From Thalassotalea marina (GTDB taxonomy: Bacteria > Pseudomonadota > Gammaproteobacteria > Enterobacterales > Alteromonadaceae), in the NCBI RefSeq assembly GCF_014656435.1, contig NZ_BNCK01000006.1:1-64000 (forward strand): a stretch of DNA of 64,000 nt. Reading direction: 5' to 3'. The notes below the pieces were generated by a model. It was given only the letters and a program-made list of their open reading frames with translations. It made no database searches and had not been told where the DNA came from. This document shows positions 5,829 to 22,154 of this stretch, in pieces. The position numbers and the translations under genes are program-made. Each line of letters opens with the position of its first letter. Position 1 is the stretch's first letter.

Positions 5829-5837
5829 CGGGGTTTA

Positions 5838-7160
5838 TCAAAGCAATCGATCAAGTTGCTGTTGATATTGCGCAACCGCCATTTCGTCAGCTTTTGCTTT
5901 ATCCAATGCCTGTTGAAAATGTTTAACCGCTTGTTTTGTGTTGCGCTCTATTAGATATAATTTAGCGAGTTCGCCAGATAATTGATGAACTTGGGGATGC
6001 TGTTTTATTCCTGCTTTCAATACTTTAATCGCACGTTCAACATTGTCATGCTCAGCAAAGAACTTAGCGTAGCTTGTAAATCGATTATTGATTTTGTATT
6101 CGCCTAAATAACGCTCAAACTCCTGAAACGCCTGATAATTATTTTCCTCAAGTGCGTATCTAAAAAGCGTAAAATGCGCCACTTCCCCTACCGTTTCAGG
6201 GACGCCATATTTTTTTGCTCTGCGTTTAAAATAGTCAACTATTGCCGTCACGCCACCAAAAGCTTCAACATCTTGTAATGAATAAAAAGTTAAGTCGTGA
6301 TAATCATTAAACTGCCATGTCAGCCCTTTGCTTAACGCGTCAAATGGCGTAGTAAAATGATCGATATGACCACTATAGTTATCATGATAATGATAATTCC
6401 AATCGACTGTCGCTCTGCCGGCTGCTTTAAACACCTCAATTAAACCTTCATGACCTACAAGCGCGTGTTTTTCTTTTTCACCCAACGACAAATAAACCTT
6501 TACACCTAGCCCCTTATTTAACGCTAGGGTGTCTTTGGTTCTAGCAATTTGTGATTCACTATAATATGGCCCACTTGCCAACAATAATCCTTGGAAAGCT
6601 TGTGGGTAGTCATTAAAAAGGCTTAAGCCAAACGAGGCGGCAAACTGCCAGCCAAAATAGAGGTTCTGACCACTGGTATGAAAGGCGTTATCAACTTTTG
6701 GCATAATGTGTTCAACCAAGGTTTTGCTTAGCTGTGCAGAATTACTATTTAATAACTGTGCACGCTGCCTTTTCGAGTTTTGTACAAGTTTTGCGGTGTT
6801 GATGCCGACAACAATAAAAGCGGGACTTGCCGTCATGGTATGAATACCGGCACTTAACGTTTGTTGAAAACCTATGGCGTTGTAAAGGTAATGTTGCCCG
6901 TCCATAACATATAGTACAGGCAGGCGAATGTCTTTGCTGTTGCTGGGAACAAAAACGTCAAGACTTAAGCCTTGTTCTAGCTTAAGTTGATAAAAGTGTC
7001 CCATGTCATTGTTATAAACGTTAGTAAACTTGTGGTCTTTGGCAAATGACATCGAAGAACACAAAACGGTCAGCCAAACAATGGTTTTGCATAAGTTACT
7101 GATTAATGTTGCTGTTGATATGCTACTGAAATTTTTATAGCGCAATAATGATAAAAACAA
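5838..7160 (-). CDS. Secreted esterase-family (alpha/beta hydrolase, enterochelin-esterase-like) protein with C-terminal TPR-like repeats. It may be catalytically atypical
   Basis: LPVLYVMDGQHY motif typical of the putative-esterase fold. Where paralog 9798-11105 has GHSYTG, this protein has FGWQFAASFG, so no clear GxSxG. The C-terminal 100 aa form helical TPR-like repeats. TTG start preceded by AGGAAAGGGG. Confidence 0.6.
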   Translation of the reverse strand: MFLSLLRYKNFSSISTATLISNLCKTIVWLTVLCSSMSFAKDHKFTNVYNNDMGHFYQLKLEQGLSLDVFVPSNSKDIRLPVLYVMDGQHYLYNAIGFQQTLSAGIHTMTASPAFIVVGINTAKLVQNSKRQRAQLLNSNSAQLSKTLVEHIMPKVDNAFHTSGQNLYFGWQFAASFGLSLFNDYPQAFQGLLLASGPYYSESQIARTKDTLALNKGLGVKVYLSLGEKEKHALVGHEGLIEVFKAAGRATVDWNYHYHDNYSGHIDHFTTPFDALSKGLTWQFNDYHDLTFYSLQDVEAFGGVTAIVDYFKRRAKKYGVPETVGEVAHFTLFRYALEENNYQAFQEFERYLGEYKINNRFTSYAKFFAEHDNVERAIKVLKAGIKQHPQVHQLSGELAKLYLIERNTKQAVKHFQQALDKAKADEMAVAQYQQQLDRLL

Positions 7161-7500
7161 AATGATCCCCTTTCCTATTTAACCTCAGGTTTGTATAAGA
7201 AATAGTGCTAAATCAAAGAAAACAATAAGTTAGCAATCTCTTATATTTCTAGGACGATATTTTTGTCTGAATTAAAGGCATTTTGCAGCAGGAATAGCTA
7301 GCTATTTCGCTTCAAAATAACGCAGAAGTCAGTAAAAATAGCACCTAGAAACGCATTGTTTATGCGAAGCTGAGGTTATTTAATTAATTTACGCCTTTTT
7401 AAATGGCAGGGGCAAGCAATACAACCTTAAACCCAGTTGTTTAACTGATGATGAGCTGATGTTTAACTGATGCTTATTCTATTGCTTAAATATCAACAAG

Positions 7501-9579
7501 TTAAAATAGCTTAACTAGCTCTTTTCGAGCAGAAATTATTTGAGTTGTTAGTAAGTTATCGGCCTTTACGTCAGTAATAAAGGTGGTTTTATCTTTCAGT
7601 GTCATCAGTGTGTTAATGCTTGACTGGTTATACGATTTACTCATCAAGTGTCGGGTTTTATGGTTAGTCCAATAAACGCCATCAATCGCAAAAACTGCCA
7701 CATCCACTTGTTCAGCCAGAACTTCAGGGCTGGTTTGTTGCAGTTCAGCCATCGCTATTTGCATCAAGCGATCATCTCTATCAAGTACGTATAAGGTGTC
7801 ATCTCTAATCGCGGCACTTGCCACATTGTCGATGCCTAAAGAGGTTAGTTCACCATTTGTTAGATTCACCACATATAACTCTCTAACTTTATGATGGTTT
7901 GCGCTGATTAAAACTTCATTATCGCTATACCAATCTAGAACAAATCGAACAGGTACTGACACAGCATGTATTTGACTATTGCCCTGCAAGTCTACTTGCA
8001 CTAACTGGTCATTGGCAGAAAGTAAAAGATGTGTTCCATCAGGAGACCAATGAATGTCATTTAAATTGCTCCCTTGACGAAACCTTGTCAGAGGGTACGC
8101 ATGCTGTAGATCAGTTAACCACACCTGCTCTGAGCCATTTTTATCAGAAATATAAGCAATTAAATCACCATTAGGTTGAAACTTGGCTTTTCGTTCAACC
8201 GCAGTACTTCGGCTTAAACTTTTATAAGGCTGAAACTCTTGATTAAAACTACCTTGTACCGACTGCCAAGTTGCCTCATCAGCTAGGTTTATCAAGGCGA
8301 CATCAGTGTCTACATGTCCACGCACACCAACTAAACTTTGCATATCAGGTGCCGCAGTCACCATAATTATGCCCTTTTCAGCTATGGTTATCTCTTCTGT
8401 TTTACCCGATAAATAGAGATTAAAAGTGCCCGAATTATTGGCATAAATAAGGTATTCGCCATTGGCGGCAAAATTTGCTTCAACATAATCATATGCGCCA
8501 GATTGAACTGGACGTTCAATCAATACTTCAGATATTAACTGTCCCTGCTCATCCAGCAAGATAAGCCAATCATTATGATCGCTGTCTCTGGCGATAACAG
8601 CAAACGTGTTTGTCGCAGCATGGTGATCATAATAATAAATGCGCTTTTCACTATTTTGATAAATGGGTTGTTCAACTTGGGTTCTGTTGTCAACCTGCAT
8701 CAATTGATAACGATTTTGTATCATTTTTAAAAATGCGACTTTGTTATTGCCCAACCCATGGGCAAGTTCAATTAAGTGTTGATCACAACGATGTACAGTA
8801 TTTAATTTCGCAGGTGCAGTTAACGCTTGAGCAAAATCAACCGATTGAATAGACCAACAATTATTAGTGGAAGCTTGAGGAGTGCAGCTTTCTTGCACTG
8901 TGGTAAATATCTGACTGCCATCAGGTGAAAAGCTTGGCAAAGTGTAAACAGCGTCAACTTGTGTTAATTGGCTTTCTTTGCCTGACTCAAGGTGTTTTGC
9001 CCATATTTGGCTCTGGCAAGTGCCGATCATGCGGGTAAAAATTAAATATTGTCCGTCGGGTGAAAAAGTTGGAAATAAATCATTTTCTTCACTTTGGGTA
9101 AGTTCTTGTATGTAATTATATTTCACCATTGGCGACGATGACTGATGGTGCCAAAAAAAAACACTCGCGACTAATACCAGCAAAAATAAAATTAAGCCGC
9201 TTTTAAAACTAAAGCGCTGAGGTGATGTAGCAGTTTGCTCTAGCGTTTTGTTATTGGTTTCAATGATTTCAACACGGGCCGTTAATCGATAACCAATTTT
9301 TGGATGTGTAACAATAACCTCCTGGCGTTTTGCATCATCACCTAACACTTTCCTTAATTGTGCAATGCAGCGCTGCAAAGCATTAGGTACCACTTCAACA
9401 TTGGGCCAAATCGCATTTTTTATCACGTCATGCGTCACCACTTCATTTTGATGCTTGGCCAATAGCGCTAATACTTTTAGGATTTTAGGCTCTATCGATT
9501 GTGTATTATCGTCAATAGTCACGGTTGAATGTAAAAGGTCAACCAAAGTGTTATTAACATAAAAGCGAGTGGCAAACAT
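7501..9579 (-). CDS. ToxR/CadC-like membrane-bound one-component regulator: N-terminal OmpR/PhoB-type winged-helix DNA-binding domain, one TM helix, periplasmic TolB-like beta-propeller
   Basis: N-terminus resembles the trans_reg_C domain (LLAKHQNEVVTHDVIKNAIWPNVEV...IGYRL). TM segment LILFLLVLVASVFFW. The periplasmic part has repeated FSPDG, SFSPDGSQIF and WSPDGTHLLL blades. Confidence 0.7.
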   Translation of the reverse strand: MFATRFYVNNTLVDLLHSTVTIDDNTQSIEPKILKVLALLAKHQNEVVTHDVIKNAIWPNVEVVPNALQRCIAQLRKVLGDDAKRQEVIVTHPKIGYRLTARVEIIETNNKTLEQTATSPQRFSFKSGLILFLLVLVASVFFWHHQSSSPMVKYNYIQELTQSEENDLFPTFSPDGQYLIFTRMIGTCQSQIWAKHLESGKESQLTQVDAVYTLPSFSPDGSQIFTTVQESCTPQASTNNCWSIQSVDFAQALTAPAKLNTVHRCDQHLIELAHGLGNNKVAFLKMIQNRYQLMQVDNRTQVEQPIYQNSEKRIYYYDHHAATNTFAVIARDSDHNDWLILLDEQGQLISEVLIERPVQSGAYDYVEANFAANGEYLIYANNSGTFNLYLSGKTEEITIAEKGIIMVTAAPDMQSLVGVRGHVDTDVALINLADEATWQSVQGSFNQEFQPYKSLSRSTAVERKAKFQPNGDLIAYISDKNGSEQVWLTDLQHAYPLTRFRQGSNLNDIHWSPDGTHLLLSANDQLVQVDLQGNSQIHAVSVPVRFVLDWYSDNEVLISANHHKVRELYVVNLTNGELTSLGIDNVASAAIRDDTLYVLDRDDRLMQIAMAELQQTSPEVLAEQVDVAVFAIDGVYWTNHKTRHLMSKSYNQSSINTLMTLKDKTTFITDVKADNLLTTQIISARKELVKLF

Positions 9580-9797
9580 AAAACTTCATTAAAAAACGGC
9601 AATTCGCTCATTGTAGCGAGGGAAAATATCAATTGAAATAACTAACTAAAGAAGTGCCGAAATATCACTTTTTTAACTAGCGTAACAGCTATTACAGTAA
9701 TACATCAGCAATTCATCAGCCCGAAAACATTGTACTCTAGTGACAATTATTCAAAGGTAGCTTTAACTTTTGTTTTAAAATACAAATCAGAGGAACA

Positions 9798-11105
9798 ATG
9801 AAGATTTTTAAACAAGTTACTTTTTGCCTATTAACTATTTATTTAACTTTTGGTGTGATAAATCAATCTATCGCAAATGACACGATACAATTTAACACCA
9901 ACGAATTTAACGCTAATAAATCATTAGTCATAAAACTACCCGAAAGTTATCAGCAATCGCCCAATCGACATTACCCTGTTGTTTACCTGTTAAATGCTAA
10001 CGACTTTTATTTTGGTGATATCACCGAGCATTTTGAACAAACCATCACACGACTAACTTTGCAAAATCGCATTCCTGAAAGCATTGTTGTCTACGTGAAT
10101 AATAAATCTTGGTATCAAGACGCTATAAACCAAGGTGACAGTTTTACAACTTTTTTAACTGATGAGGCGATTACAGCAATCAGCAGTAAGTACCGAGTGT
10201 TAAACAAGCACATACTCGTTGGACATTCGTACACAGGTGCTCTTATGGCAAAAAGTTTTGCCAAGCTGAGTAAGGCATTTACTCATCAACTGATCATTTC
10301 ACCAATATTCCCAGACGTTGATTTTATCCGAGGTGCAGCCAATGCTCAGCAGCCGTCAATGACCAAATACCAGCAAGCACTCTTATTTGTTGACCCGCAA
10401 AATCAACTAGATGTTAGCTTATTAACTGACATGTTATCGGCATCACAATTGCCAGAGTATTTTGATGTTAGCGTTGAACAACACACGGGGCACTTCACTG
10501 TGTTACCTGTTGCAATAACTAAAGGTATGGCAAAGATCTATGCAGACTTTTTACTGACTGAAGAAAAGTCAACGCCACTTAGTCTTGAGCAAATCAAAAG
10601 CCAATATTTAGCCGTACAAAATAAATATCAACAACCTACTGAACGCCAAGACATAGACAGTATTATTACCGCTTTTGCCTCGAGCTATTTAGAACAAGGC
10701 TATTTTGAGCAGGCTTTTGATTTGTGGCAGCACAGTAAAACTAAATTTAGACATTATTTTATTAACAGAGCGGCACAGCGTTTCATGGCTAAACATAACT
10801 ACCAAAGCGCAGAGCAAGTATGGCTAGGGCTAGCTAAAATATTTCCAAACTCTCCTTACGTTTGGCAACACCTTTTAAACCTTGCTGATACAACAAACAA
10901 TAACAAACTAAAACAACATGCTACGTTAGGCTTTGATAGTGCCGTTAAGCAATTTACACAACAAGATCACGCCATGTGGCTGGCCTATATCGAACAAACA
11001 CAGTCGATCAATCAACAGTTAAAACAAGCAGTATTAATCCGAGTTCTGCAGCAAGAGCCAAATAATGAAAAAGCACAAAGTCTTTTACTTAAACAGCATG
11101 ACTAA
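9798..11105 (+). CDS. Secreted esterase-family alpha/beta hydrolase with C-terminal TPR-like repeats (paralog of 5838-7160)
   Basis: Signal peptide. HYPVVYLLNANDFYFG. Nucleophile elbow ILVGHSYTGAL (GxSxG). C-terminal helical repeats. GAGGA RBS before the ATG. Confidence 0.65.
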   Translation: MKIFKQVTFCLLTIYLTFGVINQSIANDTIQFNTNEFNANKSLVIKLPESYQQSPNRHYPVVYLLNANDFYFGDITEHFEQTITRLTLQNRIPESIVVYVNNKSWYQDAINQGDSFTTFLTDEAITAISSKYRVLNKHILVGHSYTGALMAKSFAKLSKAFTHQLIISPIFPDVDFIRGAANAQQPSMTKYQQALLFVDPQNQLDVSLLTDMLSASQLPEYFDVSVEQHTGHFTVLPVAITKGMAKIYADFLLTEEKSTPLSLEQIKSQYLAVQNKYQQPTERQDIDSIITAFASSYLEQGYFEQAFDLWQHSKTKFRHYFINRAAQRFMAKHNYQSAEQVWLGLAKIFPNSPYVWQHLLNLADTTNNNKLKQHATLGFDSAVKQFTQQDHAMWLAYIEQTQSINQQLKQAVLIRVLQQEPNNEKAQSLLLKQHD

Positions 11106-11149
11106 GTGACATACCTCACGCCCCAATTTAAGCGCTTTAAGAAGTTAAC

Positions 11150-14100
11150 TTACTCAATGGAGTTAACTTCATCACTGCTATCTACTTTTGTCTGATTTTT
11201 ATTGTCAGTTGACAGTTCTCTGCTGATTTTTTGGATTGGCGTTTCTTTTGTTGTCGAAGCTTTCCCCGCCGGATGATTCAAATTCGACAACACATTTACC
11301 AGCTCGCCGTCTAATTGCTGCTTGTCAGCAAGTGTCTGTGCAAGAGGTGAAAATACGCTTTCAAGTTGCTGAGAGAACAAGCCAAGCACTTCACTTAAAT
11401 CATGACCTTGCTCAGATTTAGCTGATTTGTTTGGCTTTAAATCACGAACAGCGTCAGTTAGCTCAGATAAGTTAACACTATTGGGTTGTTGTAATATCTT
11501 CGCCAAATTTGTCAATTCCTTCTGCACCAATGAAACTTGCGAAGCAATATTGGCCACAGGGTTGTCACTACCACCCAGATTTTTATGGCGTACGTACTCT
11601 TCTTTGATTTGTAACCAACGATGCTGATCTTCTGGAGTTAAGGTGTTTCTTAACTCACCAAGCTTAAGTAAATTCTCTTCAGCACCAACCGTTAATGTTT
11701 GTGCTTCACCGCGATAGTGATCGGCTATCAGCTGCTCAATTTCTTGCTCTGTCATCACAGGCACAACTTTTTCTGCCATTTTATTCATGTTGCGATAACT
11801 TCCCTGCAACTTAAATGGCGGCTCTATCCGATATTTATCATCTTGAGCGGCAGAGGCAATATACTGCTCGTTGGTTTTTAACACCGTTTGTTGTATTTGC
11901 CTAATGCGCTTAATCACTGCGATGATTTCGTTAACTTCTGCTTGAGAGTATCCGTGTTTTAAATCACTGGCATTGACCGGTTCGCCATCAGCTTGTTTGA
12001 TCAGCTGATACAAGTCATCCATATCTCGTGTTGCCAATGGTGCTAAATAACGGTTACTGGTTAATGAGTTTTCGATAAAACTCAATGAAAATTCATATTC
12101 TCGGCCACTTAGCGTGTCACCTAGATTATAAATATCTGCTCGGTTCGCCAACATGTCTGGGATAGTGAACGCTTCGCCAGACTCTGTATAAGGGTTGCCC
12201 GCCATGATCACAGCAAACTTTTTACCGCGTAAGTCGTACGTTTTGCTTTGTCCTTGCCATACACCATCAACCTTTCGAGAGCCATCACACAGTGAAATAA
12301 ACTTTTGCAAAAACTCAGGGTGAGTGTGCTGAATATCATCGAGATACAACATCACGTTGTTACCCATTTCAAACGCTAGGTTAATTTTTTCTACTTCACT
12401 CCTAGCCGTTGAGTTATTTGCTTGCTCGGGATCGAGTGACACTTGGTCATGACCAATAGAAGGGCAATTAACCTTAACAAAAGTCATACCTAACTTACTG
12501 GCAACATATTCAATTAACGTAGTTTTACCGTAACCTGGTGGAGAAATAAGTAACAATAAGCCCATTAAATCGGAACGCTTTTGGTTGCCTGCTGCGCCAA
12601 TTTGTTTTGCTAAATTAGCCCCAATGATCGGAAAATAAACATCGTTAATTAACTTGTTTCGTACAAAAGAAGATAAAGCTTTAGGCTGAAATTCACGCAT
12701 ATTCAGCTGGGTTCGCTTGTGCTCTAATACTTGTTGTTTTTGCTGATGAAATTGCTTAAATGCTGGCACATGTACATCAACAAATTCTGTTAACCTTGAA
12801 ACAAACTCTTGATAATTAATAGTCAGCTGACGATCAACAATATTGCCGTGTTGCCCTAAGAGTTCCGAGACTGTTTTGTCCGTTTCAGCGGACGAGCTAT
12901 AAAACTGAGCAGCCTCGCCAAAGGTCATTAAACATGCAGCTTCCACTAAAGTATCTTCTGCTGCCTTGATCTGTTGATTCTCAGAAAAGGCACTTAGCCA
13001 AGCATAATAAAGTGCATATTGCTGCCCTGTGTGCTGGCAGGCACCAATTGCTTGTCCAATAGAATGTTCTAAGTTATTAGCTTTGAGTTGTAGTTTTAGG
13101 TCTTTAACGAGAGTTTGACTGGCTTCTTTGGTCACAAAGCTAGAATTACCCTGTGACAATTCTTCGAGTAAATAACGTGCCGCCAAAGCAGGTTGAGCGC
13201 TCAACCATACATGTTGCTGCTGAAAATCACTCAACAGTTCAGTAAATTCAGCTAATAAATCGTTGCGCAGTCCACTAGAGCCAAAGGTTTGCTCCATCAT
13301 ATTTAAATTTACGCAACGGTTTTGTATATCGATACGACTATTATCATTGAGCTGCATGCACCAAAAAGCAAGTACTAGGCGCTTTTCTTGGCAAGGATAA
13401 GCAAGTAAACCAATATCAGCTTTTAACGATAACAAAGCGTTTAAAATCGCCACTGCGTCTTGGTCATGTACCCCCTTGTCATAACCTTCTTGATACCGTT
13501 GTTCGACATAACGTTGAACAACTTTTATCAAGCTATTATCACTTGCGGCGGCGGTTAATTCGGCGATAGCTTGCAGCCCTTTCTTTTCAGCGTCAAATAA
13601 AATACTTGCCGCCAGATATTCACCGCGATACACCGTGCTATTTTCTGATATTAGGTCTTGTTGCCATAAATATTGAGTACCAGCAAACATCGAGCTGTCT
13701 ATGACTTCAAAATATTCACTGCCAGAAATATGCAACAGCATCTCGTTATCTCTTGGCAGTAACGTTAGCTCTGGCTGTTGCTTATTCACGGAAAATTGAT
13801 GATCGCCAATTTTAACTAAACTGCCGTCTGCCGAATAAATATCTGACTTATCACGTAATGCTCGAACCGCCTGCTCTTTAGCGTTTTTTAACTTAGCGTC
13901 TACATCGTCAGCTTTAACATGATCATCTAAGGCTCTAAGCTGCTCAACTAACTGTCTAAGCTTTGTCACCATAGGGTCTGCGGCAAAATAGCTATTGAGT
14001 TTATCTAGGCTGTCAAAACCACTGGTTCGACGGTCGATTCCAGACAAAATACGCTCTGCCGCTGTAAATAACGTCAAACAGCGCTTTTGCTGCGCATCCA

Positions 14101-16387
14101 TCAATTGCTGTTTATGCTGCTCGAAGTTGTCATATACTTCATCGCGTTTTGCCAAGATTTCGCCATGAAACTCATCATAGTCACTAAATTGGCTTTCTAA
14201 TTCTTCCAGCTGGATCAATAACTGCGATAGCTGCTGATCACACTCTTGAGGTGTGTTACTGGCGTTGAGCGCACTGGTTACGCTTTGGTTTAGTAATTTA
14301 AATCGTGCGCCAAATTCAGCACGAGCTTCATCAATACCAACATTTTTCACTGCTAGATCAGCGTTAGCATTAACTCGGTTAACTAAACTAAAAACCGCAG
14401 AGATATCTTCCAGAATACGTGTACGTTGTCTGCTGTCTTCAATATCTATCGACAACATAGTTTGATTAAGTAACTCAAGCCCTGCAATAAGCGTTTCAAT
14501 GCGCTCTTTAATCGGTTTTAGCGCAGAAATTGCATCACATTGAGCCACTGCCTGTTCAATCGATTCTATTTCTTGATAATAAGGTGTTAATGCATTTTCT
14601 TGCTGTAAAAAATCAGCCGTTTGTTGGCTTAATGATTTGCTTAATTGGTCAAGTTGTTGGTCTATTTGATCGATGGCCTCAACATCAATGTATTTAAGTT
14701 CTTTGTGAGAAATAAGCTCACCTTTAAAGCCAGATAATGCCACCAAACCTTCAACATATTGTGCCGCATTATCTGCCGACATATCGGCCAATTCACTTGA
14801 AAGTTGCGCAAACTTCTCTTTTGCGCCAATCAATGTTTCATCTGAGTTTTGCTTAATTGCGGTAACTTTTTCAAACTCATCTAATGCCAATTCTGCCGCT
14901 TCAACCACCTGTTGTAACAATGCATACAAAGAAGCTAGCTCTGAATCATTTAACCAGTGATAGTGGTCAAACAGTTGCTTCGCCTCTTTGACCAAATCGT
15001 TAAAGTGCACCATGCTAGGCGTTTTAACGCCAATTAATTTAACCACGCTGTAAAGTGCAGAAATACCTCTTACTAATTCTGCATTACCTATTTTTCCAAA
15101 GAAGCTGTTATCCGCTGGTTGGCTGCTCGCGTGCTCTTCACTGCAAAATGGTGTTGTCCATATTTGCATTGAGTGCAGTCTTGATGGCTCAGATTCGGCT
15201 GCAAAAATTACTGCTCGGCCATTTTCGTAAATACTTTGACCATGACCGTAAATCGGGTTTTGTAGCGTTCTCGTAATTAAGTTATAAGCAAACAACGCAT
15301 ATTGGCCTGCACTTGGCTCATAAAAGATGTAGAGAAAGTCTTCACCGTTAGGTGACTTGATAATGCGGTGAAGCTCTAAATTATCGGATTTGTCATCAAA
15401 ACTTTTATGGTCACCATTTTGTAAGTAATAGCCACCGGGGAAAATAATGCCATGATCTTCTGGTAATTGAATACAGGAATTTGCAATGGCATCTTGTCGC
15501 AAGACCTGCTGAGTTTTGGTATTAAAAATTAAATGGCGAGTGTGCTCTTCACGATAAGGCTTCACCTTTAACAGGATCAGTTCACCAACCATAGCATAAT
15601 CAATATCAGCATCATCAAGTGACTGGTGTGTATCTTCCACTGGTTCACTATAAATGCCTTCGCCTGCCTCAGTATTATTTTCCACTTTGAGTGTTAGATT
15701 GCCACCCGTGCATTCTACAAACAAAGTATCAAACAAGTTGTAATGGGCAAACTTGCCACTTACTTGCTGGTCACGAGTTACACTTTGCCATTCAAAATCA
15801 AAGTTTTCAGGCTGTTTTAGTGCACGTTCGCCTCGGTTATCGATGTAAGTCACTTGGTGGTTAGCATCGATTGCCCACTGAAATACCCGAATATCATCGA
15901 GACGTTCACCTATCTGAAATATGGCAAACACTTTGCTGCCTTGACGGTAAACATGTGCTAGGAATGTTTTTTTGTAATAGGTGTATAGCTCATCAAAATC
16001 ACGAACAAATTCTGGCTCTTCCAGAAAACTGCCTTCAATAGGTAAGTCGACAATATCGACACCTTCGTCGGTAACTTCCAACTTATGCAAACTGAAAACA
16101 TCCGCCACGGTGATGTTACGTTTTAGACCCAAAAATACGTTGTAGCCAAAAAGTAAGATATCACCAATGGCTGCGATATCACGAGCAACGCAGTTGTTTT
16201 CTGTTCTCACTCTAACACGAGACTCAACCGCCATATCGGTATCACCAAAGGTATTGATACGATCGGTGTTAAGTTGTTGAATTTGTGTATTTAGCTCTGT
16301 ACCTAGGTGGGTCAGTCTACGCTGAATTAGCTCGTAAGAACCGCCTTCTGCAACAGCCTGATTAGTGACATTGTCCTGAATTGCCAT
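11150..16387 (-). CDS. Giant (1745 aa) multidomain protein: N-terminal ~420-aa beta-rich region, ~800-aa alpha-helical/coiled-coil middle, and a single AAA+ ATPase module (AAA_5/MoxR-dynein-like) at residues ~1270-1450
   Basis: Walker A ISPPGYGKTTL (DNA ~12520-12545). Walker B VMLYLDDIQH (DD rather than DE). Sensor-1-like AVIMAGNPYT and RADIYNLGD. ATG with a GGAG RBS. It is the last gene of the patatin/NfeD/flotillin operon. No TM segments seen. Confidence 0.75.
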   Translation of the reverse strand: MAIQDNVTNQAVAEGGSYELIQRRLTHLGTELNTQIQQLNTDRINTFGDTDMAVESRVRVRTENNCVARDIAAIGDILLFGYNVFLGLKRNITVADVFSLHKLEVTDEGVDIVDLPIEGSFLEEPEFVRDFDELYTYYKKTFLAHVYRQGSKVFAIFQIGERLDDIRVFQWAIDANHQVTYIDNRGERALKQPENFDFEWQSVTRDQQVSGKFAHYNLFDTLFVECTGGNLTLKVENNTEAGEGIYSEPVEDTHQSLDDADIDYAMVGELILLKVKPYREEHTRHLIFNTKTQQVLRQDAIANSCIQLPEDHGIIFPGGYYLQNGDHKSFDDKSDNLELHRIIKSPNGEDFLYIFYEPSAGQYALFAYNLITRTLQNPIYGHGQSIYENGRAVIFAAESEPSRLHSMQIWTTPFCSEEHASSQPADNSFFGKIGNAELVRGISALYSVVKLIGVKTPSMVHFNDLVKEAKQLFDHYHWLNDSELASLYALLQQVVEAAELALDEFEKVTAIKQNSDETLIGAKEKFAQLSSELADMSADNAAQYVEGLVALSGFKGELISHKELKYIDVEAIDQIDQQLDQLSKSLSQQTADFLQQENALTPYYQEIESIEQAVAQCDAISALKPIKERIETLIAGLELLNQTMLSIDIEDSRQRTRILEDISAVFSLVNRVNANADLAVKNVGIDEARAEFGARFKLLNQSVTSALNASNTPQECDQQLSQLLIQLEELESQFSDYDEFHGEILAKRDEVYDNFEQHKQQLMDAQQKRCLTLFTAAERILSGIDRRTSGFDSLDKLNSYFAADPMVTKLRQLVEQLRALDDHVKADDVDAKLKNAKEQAVRALRDKSDIYSADGSLVKIGDHQFSVNKQQPELTLLPRDNEMLLHISGSEYFEVIDSSMFAGTQYLWQQDLISENSTVYRGEYLAASILFDAEKKGLQAIAELTAAASDNSLIKVVQRYVEQRYQEGYDKGVHDQDAVAILNALLSLKADIGLLAYPCQEKRLVLAFWCMQLNDNSRIDIQNRCVNLNMMEQTFGSSGLRNDLLAEFTELLSDFQQQHVWLSAQPALAARYLLEELSQGNSSFVTKEASQTLVKDLKLQLKANNLEHSIGQAIGACQHTGQQYALYYAWLSAFSENQQIKAAEDTLVEAACLMTFGEAAQFYSSSAETDKTVSELLGQHGNIVDRQLTINYQEFVSRLTEFVDVHVPAFKQFHQQKQQVLEHKRTQLNMREFQPKALSSFVRNKLINDVYFPIIGANLAKQIGAAGNQKRSDLMGLLLLISPPGYGKTTLIEYVASKLGMTFVKVNCPSIGHDQVSLDPEQANNSTARSEVEKINLAFEMGNNVMLYLDDIQHTHPEFLQKFISLCDGSRKVDGVWQGQSKTYDLRGKKFAVIMAGNPYTESGEAFTIPDMLANRADIYNLGDTLSGREYEFSLSFIENSLTSNRYLAPLATRDMDDLYQLIKQADGEPVNASDLKHGYSQAEVNEIIAVIKRIRQIQQTVLKTNEQYIASAAQDDKYRIEPPFKLQGSYRNMNKMAEKVVPVMTEQEIEQLIADHYRGEAQTLTVGAEENLLKLGELRNTLTPEDQHRWLQIKEEYVRHKNLGGSDNPVANIASQVSLVQKELTNLAKILQQPNSVNLSELTDAVRDLKPNKSAKSEQGHDLSEVLGLFSQQLESVFSPLAQTLADKQQLDGELVNVLSNLNHPAGKASTTKETPIQKISRELSTDNKNQTKVDSSDEVNSIE

Positions 16388-16450
16388 GAAAAACTCCGTG
16401 AAGATTGGGCAGCCACTTATGTTATTTAGAGCATAAGTGGCTTAGTAACA

Positions 16451-18433
16451 CTATTTAACGTCGGTTGTATTTTTGTCACCTAAATTTAATAAGTTTGCCA
16501 ACATACCTTTTTGGCTATCGTCTGCGTTGTTCAGTGTTGATAACAACTTAGCCATATTAACGTTTTTCAATGTTTCACTGGTTTGATTAACCCCTGAAAG
16601 CACCCCTCCTAAATCATCCATAATATTGCGATCACCGTTTAATTGATCTTTGAACAGGCTTTGAACCGTTTCACTCTCGTTAACTAAGCCATCAATTGAT
16701 TTACCAACGGTAATAGACTTCATGAACTGTCTTAAGAACTCTCCGTCACCGCCCATGATATTAATATTGGCTTCTGCAAGTGCAGTTGCTAGAACTTGGG
16801 CTTGTTTTTCAGCTAAATCAACGCTGTTATCTAGTTTTGCAAGCGTCAACTCACGTTCTTGATTTAAGCGTAAGCCAAAGGTTTCAAATTCACGCGCTTG
16901 CTCTGACATGGCGTTTAATACTTCTTGTTTCTCTCTTAAACCTGTTGCCTCTGCTAGGGCTTTTTCTTCGATACCTTTTGCTTCGGCAGTCAATTTAAGT
17001 TCAAGCGACTTAGCAATCGCCTCACCTTCTTTCTCTTTAGCCTCAGCTTGCGCCAATGTTACTTGTGCATCAGCTAAACCAGCTGACGCGGCTTCTGCTT
17101 GGTTACCTTCAGCAAGGATCTTCTTAGCTTCCGACTGTTTAGACGCGGCTTTTAACTCTGCATCAGCAATAACTTGTAGCTCTTTCGCTTTAAATTCTGC
17201 AGCCTGCTCTTTAGCCTTAGCTGCTTCAATATCTTTAACTAACGCTTCTTCTGCTTCAGCCTGTGCTTTTATTACTTGTTCGTCTTTTAGGCGCGTTGCT
17301 TGTGATACCACGCGAAGATCTTTAATTCGCTCTTCTTCTTCCGCAACACTTTTTTCAACCGCTATACGCTCTTTTTGCACCTGAGCAATATTTTTACGTT
17401 CAACTTCTAGCGCTTTTTCTTTATCTATACGTAAAGTTTCTACTTCTTTTTCACGGTCAATAGATTCAATTTGACGAGCGCGAGTTACTTTTTCTTGTTC
17501 AATTGCCACAGCTCTTAAGCGGTTCTGTTCAGCAACTTCAGCTTCACGCATTTTGTTTTCTTCAGCAATAGCAACAGCTTGCTCTGTTTGAATGCGTGCT
17601 TGCTCAGACTTAGCTCGCTCTTCTTCAACAATTTTAGCTGTTTCTGCTTCTTCTCTTGCTTTAACAGTAGCAATCTCACGTGCTTGTTTAGCGGATGCAT
17701 CAGCCAACTGGCGGTCCAGCTCTAATCGTTTTTCTTCTGCTTCAATGTCTTGACGTTTAATTCGTATTTCTTCTTGGCGTTTTAAATCGTTAGTTTGAAC
17801 ACTTTGTTGCGCCGTTAATTCAGTGATTCTGCGAATACCTTCTGAATCCATAATGTTGTTTGGATCAAGATCGTTAATTGACGTTTGCTCTAAAAAGTCG
17901 ATGGCAACATCTTCTAAAACAAAACCAGATAAATCTTGCCCAATCACTTCTTTAATTTTGTCTCTAAAAATATCACGCTGAGTAAATAATTCAGTAAAGT
18001 TAAGCTGTTTACCTACCGTTTTAAGGGCTTCTGAAAATTTCGCTTCGAATAATTCTTGTAATGTTTCAGGGTACGCAGAACGTTCACAACCTACCTGCTT
18101 AGCAACACGTAAAATGTCTTCTTTAGTTTCATTTACACGGATATAAAAGGTGATGATGATGTCAGCACGAATATTATCTTGGCATATCAAACCAGAGCGA
18201 CCTTTACGCTCCAGTACCATACGCTTTGTTGAAATATCCATAACTTCTTTTTTATGGATAATTGGAATGACCATGCCACCAGTTGTACTAATGGTAGGCT
18301 CAGCTCTGAGCTTATTGATAATGAGGGCTTTGCCTTGTTCTACTTTGTTATAAAACTTCGCCACCATGATTAATAAAGAAAAGACGACTAATACGCCAAT
18401 GCCAATAGCTAGGTAAAGTGGTTCCATTACCAT
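16451..18433 (-). CDS. Flotillin-like SPFH/band-7 protein (YqiK-like) with a long E/A/K-rich coiled coil
   Basis: N-terminal TM (LAIGIGVLVVFSLLIMVA) followed by an SPFH core (…MVIPIIHKKEVMDISTKRMVLERKGRSGLICQDNIRADIIITFYIRV…). Then ~300 aa of EA-rich heptad repeats. 660 aa. Confidence 0.8.
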   Translation of the reverse strand: MVMEPLYLAIGIGVLVVFSLLIMVAKFYNKVEQGKALIINKLRAEPTISTTGGMVIPIIHKKEVMDISTKRMVLERKGRSGLICQDNIRADIIITFYIRVNETKEDILRVAKQVGCERSAYPETLQELFEAKFSEALKTVGKQLNFTELFTQRDIFRDKIKEVIGQDLSGFVLEDVAIDFLEQTSINDLDPNNIMDSEGIRRITELTAQQSVQTNDLKRQEEIRIKRQDIEAEEKRLELDRQLADASAKQAREIATVKAREEAETAKIVEEERAKSEQARIQTEQAVAIAEENKMREAEVAEQNRLRAVAIEQEKVTRARQIESIDREKEVETLRIDKEKALEVERKNIAQVQKERIAVEKSVAEEEERIKDLRVVSQATRLKDEQVIKAQAEAEEALVKDIEAAKAKEQAAEFKAKELQVIADAELKAASKQSEAKKILAEGNQAEAASAGLADAQVTLAQAEAKEKEGEAIAKSLELKLTAEAKGIEEKALAEATGLREKQEVLNAMSEQAREFETFGLRLNQERELTLAKLDNSVDLAEKQAQVLATALAEANINIMGGDGEFLRQFMKSITVGKSIDGLVNESETVQSLFKDQLNGDRNIMDDLGGVLSGVNQTSETLKNVNMAKLLSTLNNADDSQKGMLANLLNLGDKNTTDVK

Positions 18434-18500
18434 GTGTTCTTCCTCTTTGTAGATGTTGGCCTATATTAACGGCCTAAAATATGGGTAGGTTATATTCAAA

Positions 18501-19127
18501 TTAGATTGCATAACGTGCAACGATATAGACGTGCGAATCAGCGTTATATTCGATGAGTAACACTTTGTCGCCACGATTAAAAAGCTGATCTTCGGCGCAA
18601 CGAACATCAAGTAAGATTTCTGCACCGTCGTTAAAAATTTTTGCTTGACCAAATGTTGGCGTCACGCTGCTTGTTGAAATGGTTGCTTCTAAACCAACAA
18701 ACTTAGCACTGCTTGCCGTTTCAGCAGTGGCAAACATAGACTTAAATGGTCTTAACATGATTGCCGCTATTGGCAGTGAGATAAAAAAGATAACGACATT
18801 TGCAATCGCCCCAGCGCCAAAATACAGCCAACCACTGGGTAACAAATCAAGCACATAATACTGTGTGTAAACGCTGATTAGCCAACACACGAGAGCAACA
18901 ATGCTAATGACCAGTGTGAAAGGAATACCAGATAAGCCAAACGTTAACATAAAGCCAGATAGACCACCTATTGAACCATCGGCGTCAATATCCGCGTCAA
19001 CATCACCAGAGAAGTCTAAGTCGACCAGCCCTAAAAGACCAACAATCCAATAAACAACGACAACTCCCAATACCACAGAAAATATGACAGTTGGGAAGTT
19101 AGTAGAGACTTGAAATAGCTCTTCCAT
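18501..19127 (-). CDS. NfeD-like (YqiJ/YuaF-like) membrane protein with a C-terminal OB-fold
   Basis: Four hydrophobic segments, then a C-terminal beta-rich tail (KFVGLEATISTSSVTPTFGQAKIFNDGAEILLDVRCAEDQLFNRGDKVLLIEYN). It has the canonical position upstream of the flotillin gene. Confidence 0.7.
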   Translation of the reverse strand: MEELFQVSTNFPTVIFSVVLGVVVVYWIVGLLGLVDLDFSGDVDADIDADGSIGGLSGFMLTFGLSGIPFTLVISIVALVCWLISVYTQYYVLDLLPSGWLYFGAGAIANVVIFFISLPIAAIMLRPFKSMFATAETASSAKFVGLEATISTSSVTPTFGQAKIFNDGAEILLDVRCAEDQLFNRGDKVLLIEYNADSHVYIVARYAI

Positions 19128-19325
19128 GCTTCATCCTAAAAATACATCACCTAATAGCAAGGAGCATCTAAAGCAATGTGTATTATCAATAAGTTGATTA
19201 GTACCTAGCACCATCAACGTAAACAATTTGTTAATAATAGAGAAACTACCACACAAAAATACGACTGCCTATAAAAAATTTCTGCTAAGCCTTTGTGCTT
19301 ATTCAAACCTTGCTATTGAATTGAA

Positions 19326-21788
19326 TTAAATAAACTCAGTAAAAGGAACCAATTCATTCTTTAATAGCCAATATTGTGTAATAGGGTTATGAATTGGCGA
19401 GTCGCTAGGCACCAATTCGGTTTTACCCCAAAAAACGGGATACCCCATCAACTTTGATTCGGCTAGCAGGTTTTGCTCAGGTAAAACAATGCGATAATAA
19501 CCGTGTTTGTCTTTAAAAAAGCCATCGCGGTCTATGATCAATTCACCATTTTTAACATTGTAGCCAGTCCACACTTTTTGTTTGCTGTGCCAAGTTGCAA
19601 AACAAATCAGGTACAGTTGATTGTTTTGTTTGCTAAGCCTTATTGGGTGGCGATCATCATCAAAGGTATTTTTGCCATCAAGTTCAAAATCACCATCAGA
19701 AACTGGCACTCTAAGCTCTACCACCACCTCTTCTATCTGCTGATATTCAATGGCATTTATTTTGTCTTTAATAAAACTGGCCAACATGCTCAGTAATGGC
19801 CCATTAATTAAACCTAAATTTAACAAATTTGACGATGTGACCATTTGCTCAACGCGGTTTGAAAGTGCCATCAACCCCATTTTAAAATGGGCCATATAGG
19901 TGTCGTATTCAGGGTAGTTTTTATCAAATGGCGCTGGCAATGTTGTTGGAACTTTACCATGTGGGATCGCAGAGGCTTGCTGCATAAATTCCATTGCACA
20001 ATACCTGGCAACGTCTACCTCATAACGGCTTGGTATCGGCGACATAAAACCCGCAAATGCAGCTATAGGACTTCCCGGTAAAAATATTTTTTCGAAATTT
20101 TCATCAGACTTTTTATAAAATGGACCAATCGCAATGAGTTGGCTATTGCGACTTTTTGCCGCTAACCCACTAATAATATCAACAAAACTAAACACCAATG
20201 CCGTCATGATTTTCTTTTGTTCGTCTGCAGAAAACTCAGTGATGTCATTACTGACGTCAATTTGCTCTGCTAATGGCGATAAATCTGCGACAACGGAGTC
20301 TTTTTCATTAGCTAAGCGCCAGATTTCACCGGCAATAGTGGTTGGCAATGTAGGAATGGGATCTTTGTCAGATAATTCAGTTAAAAAATTAGCGATTTGA
20401 GCTTTTAAATTTAAAAAATTATCGTTATTTGGCGCAATAGCATTGGTAATACATGCTCTGAGCTCATTTCGCATTAATAACTTGTTTGCGATTTGAAAAG
20501 TGCGATGTTCCTCTTTTGCTTCGGCTTGTGCACTAGAAACGGTTGCCTGAGTCACTACTTGCCCAATAAGCTTATCCAGCGACGTTTTTTGATATAAATC
20601 GTTACCGTCAAATGCTCTAAAAACTTTTAGCGGCCCTGCTAACGCTTGTTGCGTCTGCCAATCGGTCAACCCAGGTAAATAATAATTAGGCTCAGCACCT
20701 ACGTTAGGGTCAACAAAAATTATCCTTCGTTCATAATTGGTATTTTTATCTAAGCCATCAATATGAGAAGCAAGTTTAAACGCTTCAGCAACAGGCTCGT
20801 TATTAAATGCTCCACCATCTATGTAGCTAAACCGCCCAGAGCTTTCTCCTTTATATGGCCATAAAGTCGACGGATATTCCCAGTTGTATCGCTTTAAGGT
20901 CACTGGCTCAAATGCCACCGGAAAACTGCCACTGGCGACAGCCGTTGCAACGATATGCTTCCAGTCGTCACCAGAGCGTAGGTCAAAGGTTTCATCAGGT
21001 ATTTGATCGCCCCAATGCAAACGGACCCAACGTTTAGGGTGCTGGTCTTGTTGGGATAGTTTTTCACTTGGCACCGCAGCAAAGTTAATATCAAATATTC
21101 GCATTTCTTTGTGCTGAAACGATGTAAGTGCATCATTGGTTGCAATATTGCTATCTTTGGCAACGGGATATAATTGGTAAGCTTTAGCATGAATTGGGTT
21201 TAAGTTGGCAATGCTGCAGCCATAAAGTACTCGATTAGCCAGCAACATGTGTTTTGCTTTATCACTGTTTTTATATTGCCCACTTGAAGGCATTAAATTT
21301 GCGCGAGCAATATCCACCACTGTTTTTTTATTGACCACACCACATTGAAATTTAAGCGGTGGAATATTGGCATCGCCATCTGGTTCTAACAATCGCTCTA
21401 AAGTAATTTGGTTAACCCAAATATCATTCATCACCTCTTGTGCCAGTTGAGCATCAACTAATTGCTGTTGCTTTTTATCACTAAACCCTTGCCACTTTTT
21501 GTCACTAATATCGTAAAGCGTTTTTAATGATTGTATTGCATTGTTTCTTTTTTCTGCGCCTTTATTGGGAAAAGCTAAACATTTGAGCATGATCCCTAAG
21601 CTCATTGCCCCAGCACTGGCACCAGCAAACACATCAATTTCAACACTATCATAGGGTTGATTTTGCCCATCGACACCATAAAGCAAGGCGAGTTTTATTG
21701 ATTCAGTCAGTGCAGCGCCACTAAATGATCCCAGTGAAACACCGCCGCCCATTGCAAATCCTAGTTTTAATTTAGTTGCCATATCCAT
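19326..21788 (-). CDS. Patatin-like phospholipase (820 aa) with a ~420-aa C-terminal extension of unknown function. It is the first gene of the operon
   Basis: Oxyanion-hole Gly-rich motif FAMGGGVSLGSFSG, nucleophile elbow GASAG (GxSxG), and catalytic Asp in YIDGGAFNNEP (DGG). ATG start. 350 bp of AT-rich promoter region upstream. Confidence 0.8.
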   Translation of the reverse strand: MDMATKLKLGFAMGGGVSLGSFSGAALTESIKLALLYGVDGQNQPYDSVEIDVFAGASAGAMSLGIMLKCLAFPNKGAEKRNNAIQSLKTLYDISDKKWQGFSDKKQQQLVDAQLAQEVMNDIWVNQITLERLLEPDGDANIPPLKFQCGVVNKKTVVDIARANLMPSSGQYKNSDKAKHMLLANRVLYGCSIANLNPIHAKAYQLYPVAKDSNIATNDALTSFQHKEMRIFDINFAAVPSEKLSQQDQHPKRWVRLHWGDQIPDETFDLRSGDDWKHIVATAVASGSFPVAFEPVTLKRYNWEYPSTLWPYKGESSGRFSYIDGGAFNNEPVAEAFKLASHIDGLDKNTNYERRIIFVDPNVGAEPNYYLPGLTDWQTQQALAGPLKVFRAFDGNDLYQKTSLDKLIGQVVTQATVSSAQAEAKEEHRTFQIANKLLMRNELRACITNAIAPNNDNFLNLKAQIANFLTELSDKDPIPTLPTTIAGEIWRLANEKDSVVADLSPLAEQIDVSNDITEFSADEQKKIMTALVFSFVDIISGLAAKSRNSQLIAIGPFYKKSDENFEKIFLPGSPIAAFAGFMSPIPSRYEVDVARYCAMEFMQQASAIPHGKVPTTLPAPFDKNYPEYDTYMAHFKMGLMALSNRVEQMVTSSNLLNLGLINGPLLSMLASFIKDKINAIEYQQIEEVVVELRVPVSDGDFELDGKNTFDDDRHPIRLSKQNNQLYLICFATWHSKQKVWTGYNVKNGELIIDRDGFFKDKHGYYRIVLPEQNLLAESKLMGYPVFWGKTELVPSDSPIHNPITQYWLLKNELVPFTEFI

Positions 21789-22154
21789 ATACCTATCCGT
21801 AGCCTCACCACTAAGATAGTTTATTTTTTAGGCATGGCAAATTAAAAACTACTTAATGCTCTTGTACGGAACAACACTGCGAGATAAACGTATTTCTGAC
21901 ATAACTCTAGCTAAGCAACATATTGATTTAGTTAAAAGATACTCTTCACTGCCAAACAGTTGAAGCAATATTGGTATGTTCTAATCAATGATCAGTCACG
22001 ACATTGTTATAGTATAACAATACCTTAGCCTGCATTGGTTAACTACTGGCAGGTTATCTCAACTTTTAGTCGTCCAAACGCATTTAAGCTGCAATTGGTG
22101 TCTTTTCGTCCTAAGTTATCGTGGAAAAATAAAATAATAATTTTAAGGACTCTA

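Follow-up and report, generated by a model that had tools for sequence, protein, structure and literature searches.

Do four genes that follow one another on the minus strand of a contig from the marine bacterium Thalassotalea marina form an undescribed membrane system, or do some of them belong to a known module that adjoins an unrelated gene? The genes lie at positions 11150-21788 of the window, by which we mean the whole 64,000-nucleotide stretch that was analyzed (assembly GCF_014656435.1, contig NZ_BNCK01000006.1, positions 1-64,000 of the forward strand). Read along their strand, they encode a patatin-like phospholipase of 820 amino acids (aa), a 208-aa protein resembling Escherichia coli YqiJ, a 660-aa flotillin-like protein, and a giant AAA+ ATPase of 1745 aa. 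The gaps between the open reading frames (ORFs) measure 198, 67, and 63 bp, a divergent M28 ORF lies 246 bp upstream of the patatin gene, and the region 5′ of patatin has a GC content of 34.6%, compared with 40% for the window. A sequence-only reading had taken all four genes for an undescribed membrane-microdomain system; the ORFs, gap sizes, motifs, and AT-rich upstream stretch that it described were all reproduced. Our analysis identifies the locus as something different, probably a known three-gene module (the triad of YqiJ-like, flotillin-like, and giant genes) with an unrelated patatin gene as its neighbor (Table 1).

With the giant protein as the query, a genome scan recovered 427 relatives among 185,579 species representatives, and 80 of their loci were examined (L001-L080). 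The triad loci examined come from Colwelliaceae, Pseudoalteromonas, Pseudomonas, Cellvibrio, Hahella, and others, with giant proteins 47-74% identical to that of the window. In about 70 of the 80 loci, the three triad genes follow one another in the same order and on one strand, and essentially all loci whose sequence extends far enough upstream have the triad, L046 being the exception. The same order is also kept where the giant is just 30-34% identical (L089 and L090/L091), so the proposed linkage between an NfeD/YqiJ–flotillin dyad and a giant AAA+ gene stands. Patatin is another matter. It is present in none of the 83 triad loci examined, 80 of which were checked by tblastn and a family hidden Markov model, and it is also missing from L081, whose giant is 74% identical, and from T. 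fusca L083, the two nearest relatives that were looked at. Queried with one patatin sequence alone, a metagenome scan gave no relatives, while an alignment query did; the 34 loci of the patatin family, of which 22 span 7.5 kb or more, hold no homolog of any triad protein. Patatin homologs occur instead in unrelated gene contexts.

A contig from a close relative, L084, shows how the two parts may have come to lie side by side. Its M28, KatG fragment, and patatin sequences are 94%, 96%, and 78% identical to those of the window, respectively, and tblastx synteny gives the gene order KatG–M28–(two-component system, 271-aa gene)–patatin–GGDEF. Missing from L084 between patatin and the GGDEF gene is a 13.5-kb segment that, in the window, contains the triad and three non-conserved genes, encoding proteins of 440 aa, 692 aa (Trans_reg_C plus PD40), and 435 aa. 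The segment showed no integrase, transposase, or flanking repeats. Because of the L084 synteny, we regard patatin as part of the chromosomal backbone and the triad as having arrived, or having been retained, by an insertion or deletion. Judged from gene order, patatin is a stand-alone backbone gene (KatG–M28–patatin–GGDEF) that became a neighbor by rearrangement and lies outside the conserved module. The idea of patatin as one component of a four-gene system thus finds no footing in the triad loci, the patatin loci, or the syntenic relative. Conservation does not extend to all four genes as a set; nevertheless, what is kept together is three genes and not the NfeD–flotillin dyad alone.

The two smaller triad proteins are highly divergent. 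Neither gave a Pfam match even at E<=10, and NCBIfam was likewise silent except for FloT at E 0.054. Family profiles, built from 35 homologs of the YqiJ-like protein and 32 of the flotillin-like protein, found no match among PDB sequences, and Band_7 and Flot were matched by 3 and 2 of the 32 flotillin-family members, respectively. When these families were compared with E. coli proteins by hhalign, the 208-aa family matched YqiJ with a probability of 95% (E 3e-8) and the 660-aa family matched YqiK with a probability of 99.9% (E 1e-34). Given these matches, we consider the NfeD and flotillin assignments correct, and the SPFH and NfeD calls of the sequence-only reading hold, although Pfam and NCBIfam alone recover neither protein. 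The YqiJ-like protein has three hydrophobic (transmembrane) segments and a C-terminal soluble domain, which is putatively the OB domain of an NfeD-type protein; the homology with YqiJ covers the soluble part, and the gene lies directly upstream of the SPFH gene. The flotillin-like protein has one N-terminal transmembrane segment, and its residues 215-510 are 20% E and 19% A. The yqiJK dyad of E. coli and the yuaFG(floT) dyad of Bacillus subtilis encode homologous proteins in the same gene order, but those of the window have diverged too far to be picked up by the Pfam Band_7, Flot, and YqiJ models. In E. coli, moreover, yqiJK is followed by sibD/ibsD with no AAA+ gene downstream, whereas the dyad of the window precedes the giant AAA+ gene.

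The giant belongs to the DUF3686 family, for which clustering at 50% leaves 686 representatives (E<=1e-3), most of them 1600-2000 aa in length. No transmembrane segment is evident in it. Structure prediction for its N-terminal part, suggested by the sequence-only reading, was carried out with AlphaFold (AF2): the model of residues 1-1150 (predicted local distance difference test score, pLDDT, 75.8) shows a helix, a β-rich domain, and about 430 residues of long helices (Table 1), followed by a small β unit at 858-895 and a helical domain at 921-1150. The Foldseek matches of the β domain are propellers, including those of the clathrin terminal domain, DDB1, prolyl oligopeptidase, LRRK2 WD40, and IFT-A, with low global template-modeling scores (TM-scores). 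Matches to clathrin, IFT-A, and Nup proteins raised the possibility of a "protocoatomer-like" propeller plus helical region, which we do not claim, since the TM-scores were just 0.06-0.13. The Walker A motif GYGKTT (1285-1290) and Walker B motif LYLDD (1347-1351), both noticed in the sequence-only reading, are backed by a Pfam AAA match and are invariant in 29 homologs; Asn1398 and Arg1416, in the sensor-1/Arg-finger region, are invariant as well. By Foldseek, the C-terminal 595 residues have an AAA+ fold, with a probability of 1.0 to RuvB, NorQ/MoxR, ClpB-NBD2, and Vps4 about equally. Assignment to an AAA+ clade by this route was ambiguous and was dropped. By sequence, the module is nearest to Rix7/VCP among PDB entries. 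Pfam, AF2, and Foldseek give a consistent picture of how the giant is built.

Database names point in another direction. A T. marina protein with 100% identity to the giant bears the NCBI name "DNA repair ATPase", which derives from the wording of the Pfam entry for DUF3686, "ATPase involved in DNA repair". If these labels were right, the adjacency to membrane genes would be incidental, and the weak RuvB-type matches, confined to the P-loop region, could be read in the same way. However, in about 70 of 80 loci, and in distant relatives too, the giant is collinear with a transmembrane flotillin and a three-transmembrane protein, Pfam detected no DNA-binding, nuclease, or repair-related domain in it, and the similarity to RuvB is that of the generic AAA+ fold, with NorQ, ClpB, and Vps4 scoring alike. 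In the collection of papers searched, none mentions DUF3686. We consider a role in DNA repair exceedingly improbable, and the label, which is carried by thousands of database entries, is likely misleading, as gene context points to the membrane. JGI annotations of giant homologs vary from "MoxR-like ATPase" even to "biotin ligase".

The triad, on the other hand, has a close match in the literature. Ravi, Anantharaman, Aravind, Gennaro et al. (bioRxiv 2020, mSystems 2024) described an operon class of CesT/Tir–PspA–band-7/flotillin–YqiJ/YuaF–AAA+(β-propeller) genes in which the AAA+ ATPase has an N-terminal coiled coil and a β-propeller and a phospholipase D (PLD) is sometimes present (PMC11237479). 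They also described widely distributed "abbreviated operons" of band-7/flotillin, YqiJ/YuaF, and sometimes the AAA+ ATPase alone (PMC11237479). The domain architectures agree point by point with those in the window, where the genes are adjacent and co-oriented. While the full form carries CesT/Tir(DUF2170)–PspA, and PLD (HKD) in some Proteobacteria, the window has neither; since no DUF2170–PspA homolog occurs in its 64 kb, it corresponds to the abbreviated form. The triad is therefore an ordinary abbreviated member of a published module, and its conserved part had already been described, although the patatin neighbor lies outside that description. With the same three-protein association in print (PMC11237479) and the bacABCDEF genes of Pseudomonas aeruginosa studied experimentally (PMC10948618, PMC2587700), the system can no longer be called undescribed.

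The bac genes ("biofilm-associated cluster", PA14_16140-16200; PA3732 and following) are co-transcribed, as determined by reverse transcription PCR, and a σ54 site has been proposed for them; BacB-F are up 6-13-fold in a ΔbacA mutant, and mutants of bacA and PA3731 show impaired virulence, swarming, biofilm, and rhamnolipids (PMC10948618, PMC2587700). A short NfeD is the partner of PaFlo3, which is BacD (PMC13086221). In P. paraeruginosa (L057), we found the order DUF2170–PspA–YqiJ–flotillin–giant–PLD, with the YqiJ, flotillin, and giant proteins 36%, 51%, and 47% identical to those of the window, and the published sizes of PA3730 (23 kDa) and PA3729 (76 kDa) fit the triad assignment. From this gene order and these sizes, BacE would be the giant and BacF the PLD. 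We infer that the triad is the counterpart of bacC-bacD-bacE, with BacC as the short NfeD/YqiJ-like protein, BacD as the flotillin, and BacE as the giant. The window differs from the bac operon in having no bacA (DUF2170), bacB (PspA), bacF (PLD), or σ54-type site, with patatin upstream instead. A marine Thalassotalea locus is thereby tied to the P. aeruginosa bac operon and to PspA/ESCRT-III-associated band-7 systems. An eLife 2022 paper on Arc, in which PA3729 appears just as pull-down background, was set aside as irrelevant.

What might such a module do? The AAA+ gene is genetically coupled to an SPFH scaffold gene and, in many genomes, also to PspA. One specific mechanism, which we put forward tentatively, combines a flotillin/NfeD cage with a cytoplasmic AAA+ remodeler. 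At the inner membrane, on the cytoplasmic side, flotillin would oligomerize to build an anchored SPFH cage or lattice, and the YqiJ-like protein would be its NfeD-type partner within the membrane. Docking of the giant would involve its propeller and coiled-coil arm, and its ATP hydrolysis may assemble, remodel, or strip the flotillin scaffold and, where they are co-encoded, perhaps PspA/ESCRT-III polymers too. The overall role may be envelope-stress or membrane-maintenance work, comparable to that of Vps4 with ESCRT-III or FtsH within HflK/C; an envelope-stress role is suggested because the conserved partners of the triad are PspA, DUF2170, and rhomboid. Vps4–ESCRT-III (and PspA/Vipp1) and HflK/C–FtsH each set an AAA+ motor on or within a membrane-scaffold polymer, but their likeness to the triad is a functional analogy only: the giant has neither an MIT domain nor a protease domain, and its N-terminal propeller and coiled coil are unlike Vps4 or FtsH.

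Several observations weigh against this account or against parts of it. PspA and DUF2170 have no homolog in the window at E<=0.01, nor has the 229-aa or the 521-aa PLD one there, so that the PspA link reaches T. marina by extension only, and the other recurrent accessory genes of relatives were likewise not found there. The Walker B acidic pair of the giant (aa 1350-1351, positions 12335-12340) is Asp-Asp in place of Asp-Glu; given its invariance in 29 homologs, the usual catalytic glutamate is replaced. The AF2 model of the giant's C-terminal part is of low confidence (pLDDT 63.8), and its AAA+ clade is ambiguous, with Pfam AAA and AAA_5 scoring alike and Foldseek placing RuvB and NorQ at the top. 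In T. marina, the ancestral promoter/operator is missing, and the 198-bp gap upstream of the triad holds no called promoter or terminator. The effect of ΔpaFlo3 on P. aeruginosa biofilm is mild, at about 20% (PMC13086221), and the equation of BacE with the giant comes by way of a sister-species locus and not from a direct PA14 comparison.

The sequence-only reading had also likened the locus to anti-phage modules. Its suggestion of membrane remodeling is reasonable; that of an anti-phage function is without support, PADLOC giving noise at the level of the P-loop. A four-gene abortive-infection system of this kind would have flotillin as the scaffold, the AAA+ protein as the sensor or motor, and patatin as a membrane-lytic effector, an architecture that resembles sensor-plus-effector systems. 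Patatin effectors exist in the cyclic oligonucleotide-based antiphage signaling system (CBASS). The patchy distribution of the triad, in 427 of 185,579 species representatives and unevenly even among Pseudomonas species, would also suit a defense function, as would the IS110 transposase genes that flank one relative (L081). Yet PADLOC v2 has no match for three of the proteins and just P-loop-level matches for the giant (E>=6e-4), the recurrent neighbors of the triad are otherwise housekeeping or regulatory genes with no coherent PADLOC defense system among them, and patatin, the supposed effector, is not conserved with the module. The conserved partners PspA, DUF2170, and rhomboid point to envelope stress, and biofilm and virulence are what the phenotypes known from P. 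aeruginosa affect. We therefore regard an anti-phage system as very improbable.

The patatin gene itself encodes a member of its family, as the motifs in the sequence-only reading had indicated. GGG at 14-16, GASAG with Ser58, and DGG at 324-326 are invariant in 22 family members. The Gly-rich oxyanion loop, GxSxG nucleophile, and DG[GA] aspartate are all in place, and the PF01734 match is above threshold. The protein is predicted to be cytoplasmic, with no clear transmembrane segment. It has the catalytic Ser-Asp dyad and glycine-rich oxyanion loop in common with patatin-like phospholipases (RssA-type; TIGR03607), but it is an 820-aa form with an uncharacterized C-terminal region of about 450 aa, and it scores 32.9 bits against TIGR03607, under the 262-bit cut-off.

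Could this lipase nevertheless have been recruited by the triad in this lineage? In fourteen Colwelliaceae relatives (L001-L037, L081, L083), a strongly conserved TTGACATAWTATGTCA palindrome followed by GTATRGT lies about 60-100 bp upstream of the yqiJ-like gene and, from its sequence, resembles a promoter of the σ70 type that an operator overlaps. No copy of it occurs in the whole window, even with 3 mismatches. The 198-bp spacer between patatin and the yqiJ-like gene holds no called promoter-like, terminator-like, or σ54-like site, and its folding is unremarkable (z -0.66). The AT-rich region upstream of patatin, in turn, contains a σ70-like site that is likely the patatin promoter. Sites resembling σ54 promoters (TGGCAC-N5-TTGC-like) are found in neither 19128-19325 nor 21789-22034, and their number in the window (69 versus 73.6 expected) is at chance level. 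Because the gap shows no promoter-like, terminator-like, or σ54-like site and no operator copy, read-through from the patatin promoter is possible in T. marina.

Patatin might thus be a lineage-specific capture, serving as the lipid-hydrolase partner of the module and co-transcribed with it from the patatin promoter, in analogy to the PLD (BacF). The shared strand, the gap without regulatory sites or significant RNA structure, and the loss of the promoter/operator that relatives keep are all consistent with such a capture, and genes of the lipid-hydrolase kind do recur beside the triad: 12-13 loci have a 229-aa PLD, 5 have a 521-aa PLD, and 6 have an α/β-hydrolase. That these genes, downstream of the giant, differ by clade hints at a variable hydrolase partner. 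The arrangement with patatin is, however, a single occurrence that neither the 83 triad loci nor the 34 patatin loci repeat, patatin keeps its M28/KatG synteny in a relative without the triad at that site, the PLDs lie downstream of the triad and not upstream, and consensus scans are no evidence on transcription. On balance, capture is unlikely. An extension of it, in which the rearrangement removed the ancestral promoter/operator and set the triad behind patatin so that the lipase became co-expressed and functionally coupled in an "effector swap" for PLD, is improbable too; if true, it would make control of a phospholipid hydrolase at the membrane the general job of flotillin–AAA+ modules.

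With the triad read as a known module and patatin as a neighbor by rearrangement, the locus is weak as a discovery, since its conserved part is published and its novel-looking part is the neighbor; the residual novelty is a possible lineage-specific co-option of patatin. The compact triad, free of PspA and PLD, could serve as a convenient minimal system for reconstitution. Testable leads come from the recurrent yet variable lipid hydrolases beside the module and from a conserved hairpin between two of its genes. The sequence-only reading had seen no internal terminators, and no canonical ones are present, but the gap between the flotillin and giant genes contains an 11-bp perfect stem (Table 1). 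The fold z has a median of -2.97 over 65 distinct flotillin–giant gaps, 74% of which fall below -2, compared with a median of -0.2 and 11% below -2 for the control yqiJ–flotillin gaps. The position of the hairpin is kept across genera while its sequence differs, which suggests a conserved attenuator or stabilizer. It is probably a leaky terminator or an mRNA stabilizer that would set stoichiometry and keep flotillin in excess over the ATPase.

Table 1. Features of the window, ordered by position, and genes that recur beside the triad in related loci
Feature	Position	Strand	Basis or occurrence
GGDEF gene bordering the 13.5-kb segment	4899-5828		
13.5-kb segment missing from L084, between patatin and GGDEF gene	5829..19325	.	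tblastx synteny, ORFs, domains
Giant cytoplasmic ATPase, 1745 aa	11150..16387	-	Pfam DUF3686 E 2e-186, DUF7902 E 6e-21, AAA E 1.4e-8
AAA+ module of giant, aa ~1265-1450	12038..12595	-	Pfam, motifs, PDB sequence matches, Foldseek
Long α-helical/coiled-coil region of giant, aa 417-850	13838..15139	-	AF2, mostly pLDDT 70-90; DUF7902 at 598-677
β-propeller domain of giant, aa 53-411, after helix aa 16-47	15155..16231	-	AF2 secondary structure, Foldseek
Intercistronic hairpin, flotillin/giant gap	16411..16442	-	11-bp perfect stem, 10-nt loop, no T-run
Flotillin/YqiK-like SPFH protein, 660 aa	16451..18433	-	N-terminal transmembrane segment, band-7 core, E/A-rich coiled coil
YqiJ/YuaF-type (NfeD-like) inner-membrane protein, 208 aa	18501..19127	-	hhalign, hydrophobic segments, collinearity with flotillin gene in 70 loci
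Patatin–yqiJ-like spacer, 198 bp, synteny breakpoint	19128..19325	-	without the promoter/operator kept in relatives
Patatin-like phospholipase, 820 aa (NCBI: 818 aa)	19326..21788	-	Pfam Patatin PF01734, E 7e-10, above gathering score
AT-rich region upstream of patatin	21789..22034	-	σ70-like site TTGCCA-16-TATCTT at 21840-21813
DUF2170/YjfI	upstream of triad	same as triad	29-30 loci
PspA/IM30	upstream of triad	same as triad	29-34 loci
Rhomboid	downstream of triad		10-15 loci
229-aa PLD (HKD)	downstream of giant		12-13 loci: L043-L045, L051, L057, L060, L064, L068-L072, L080
521-aa PLD	downstream of giant, some Colwellia		5 loci: L006, L010, L013, L015, L018
271-aa α/β-hydrolase	downstream of giant, some Colwellia		6 loci, including L003 and L004
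180-aa Zn-ribbon protein (PF13453)	either side of triad		24-26 of 80 loci
TelA (PF05816)	beside triad: L089 13001-14221; L090/L091 13502-14608		the two distant lineages examined

The accessory genes that recur in other genomes relate to the membrane, and among them TelA is another membrane-stress-type partner of the triad. A PspF-like activator beside the Pseudomonas loci was considered and rejected: the cluster representative is a CoA-transferase, and the sole σ54-activator cluster lies about 10.7 kb away. The Zn-ribbon gene is divergent and upstream of the triad in L002-L017 and downstream of it in L016, L042, L043, L050, and L062-L065; its frequent companion in Colwellia is a gene for a 140-aa multi-transmembrane protein without a Pfam match. 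In L081, fragments of an IS110-family transposase gene lie directly downstream of the giant gene (14454-17234). Within the 13.5-kb segment of the window, the 440-aa ORF is TPR-like, and the 692-aa protein (7501-9579, minus strand) has an N-terminal Trans_reg_C (OmpR/CadC-type) DNA-binding domain and PD40/WD40-like β-propeller repeats. From its domains, this window-specific protein resembles a ToxR/CadC-like one-component regulator with a TolB-like sensor.

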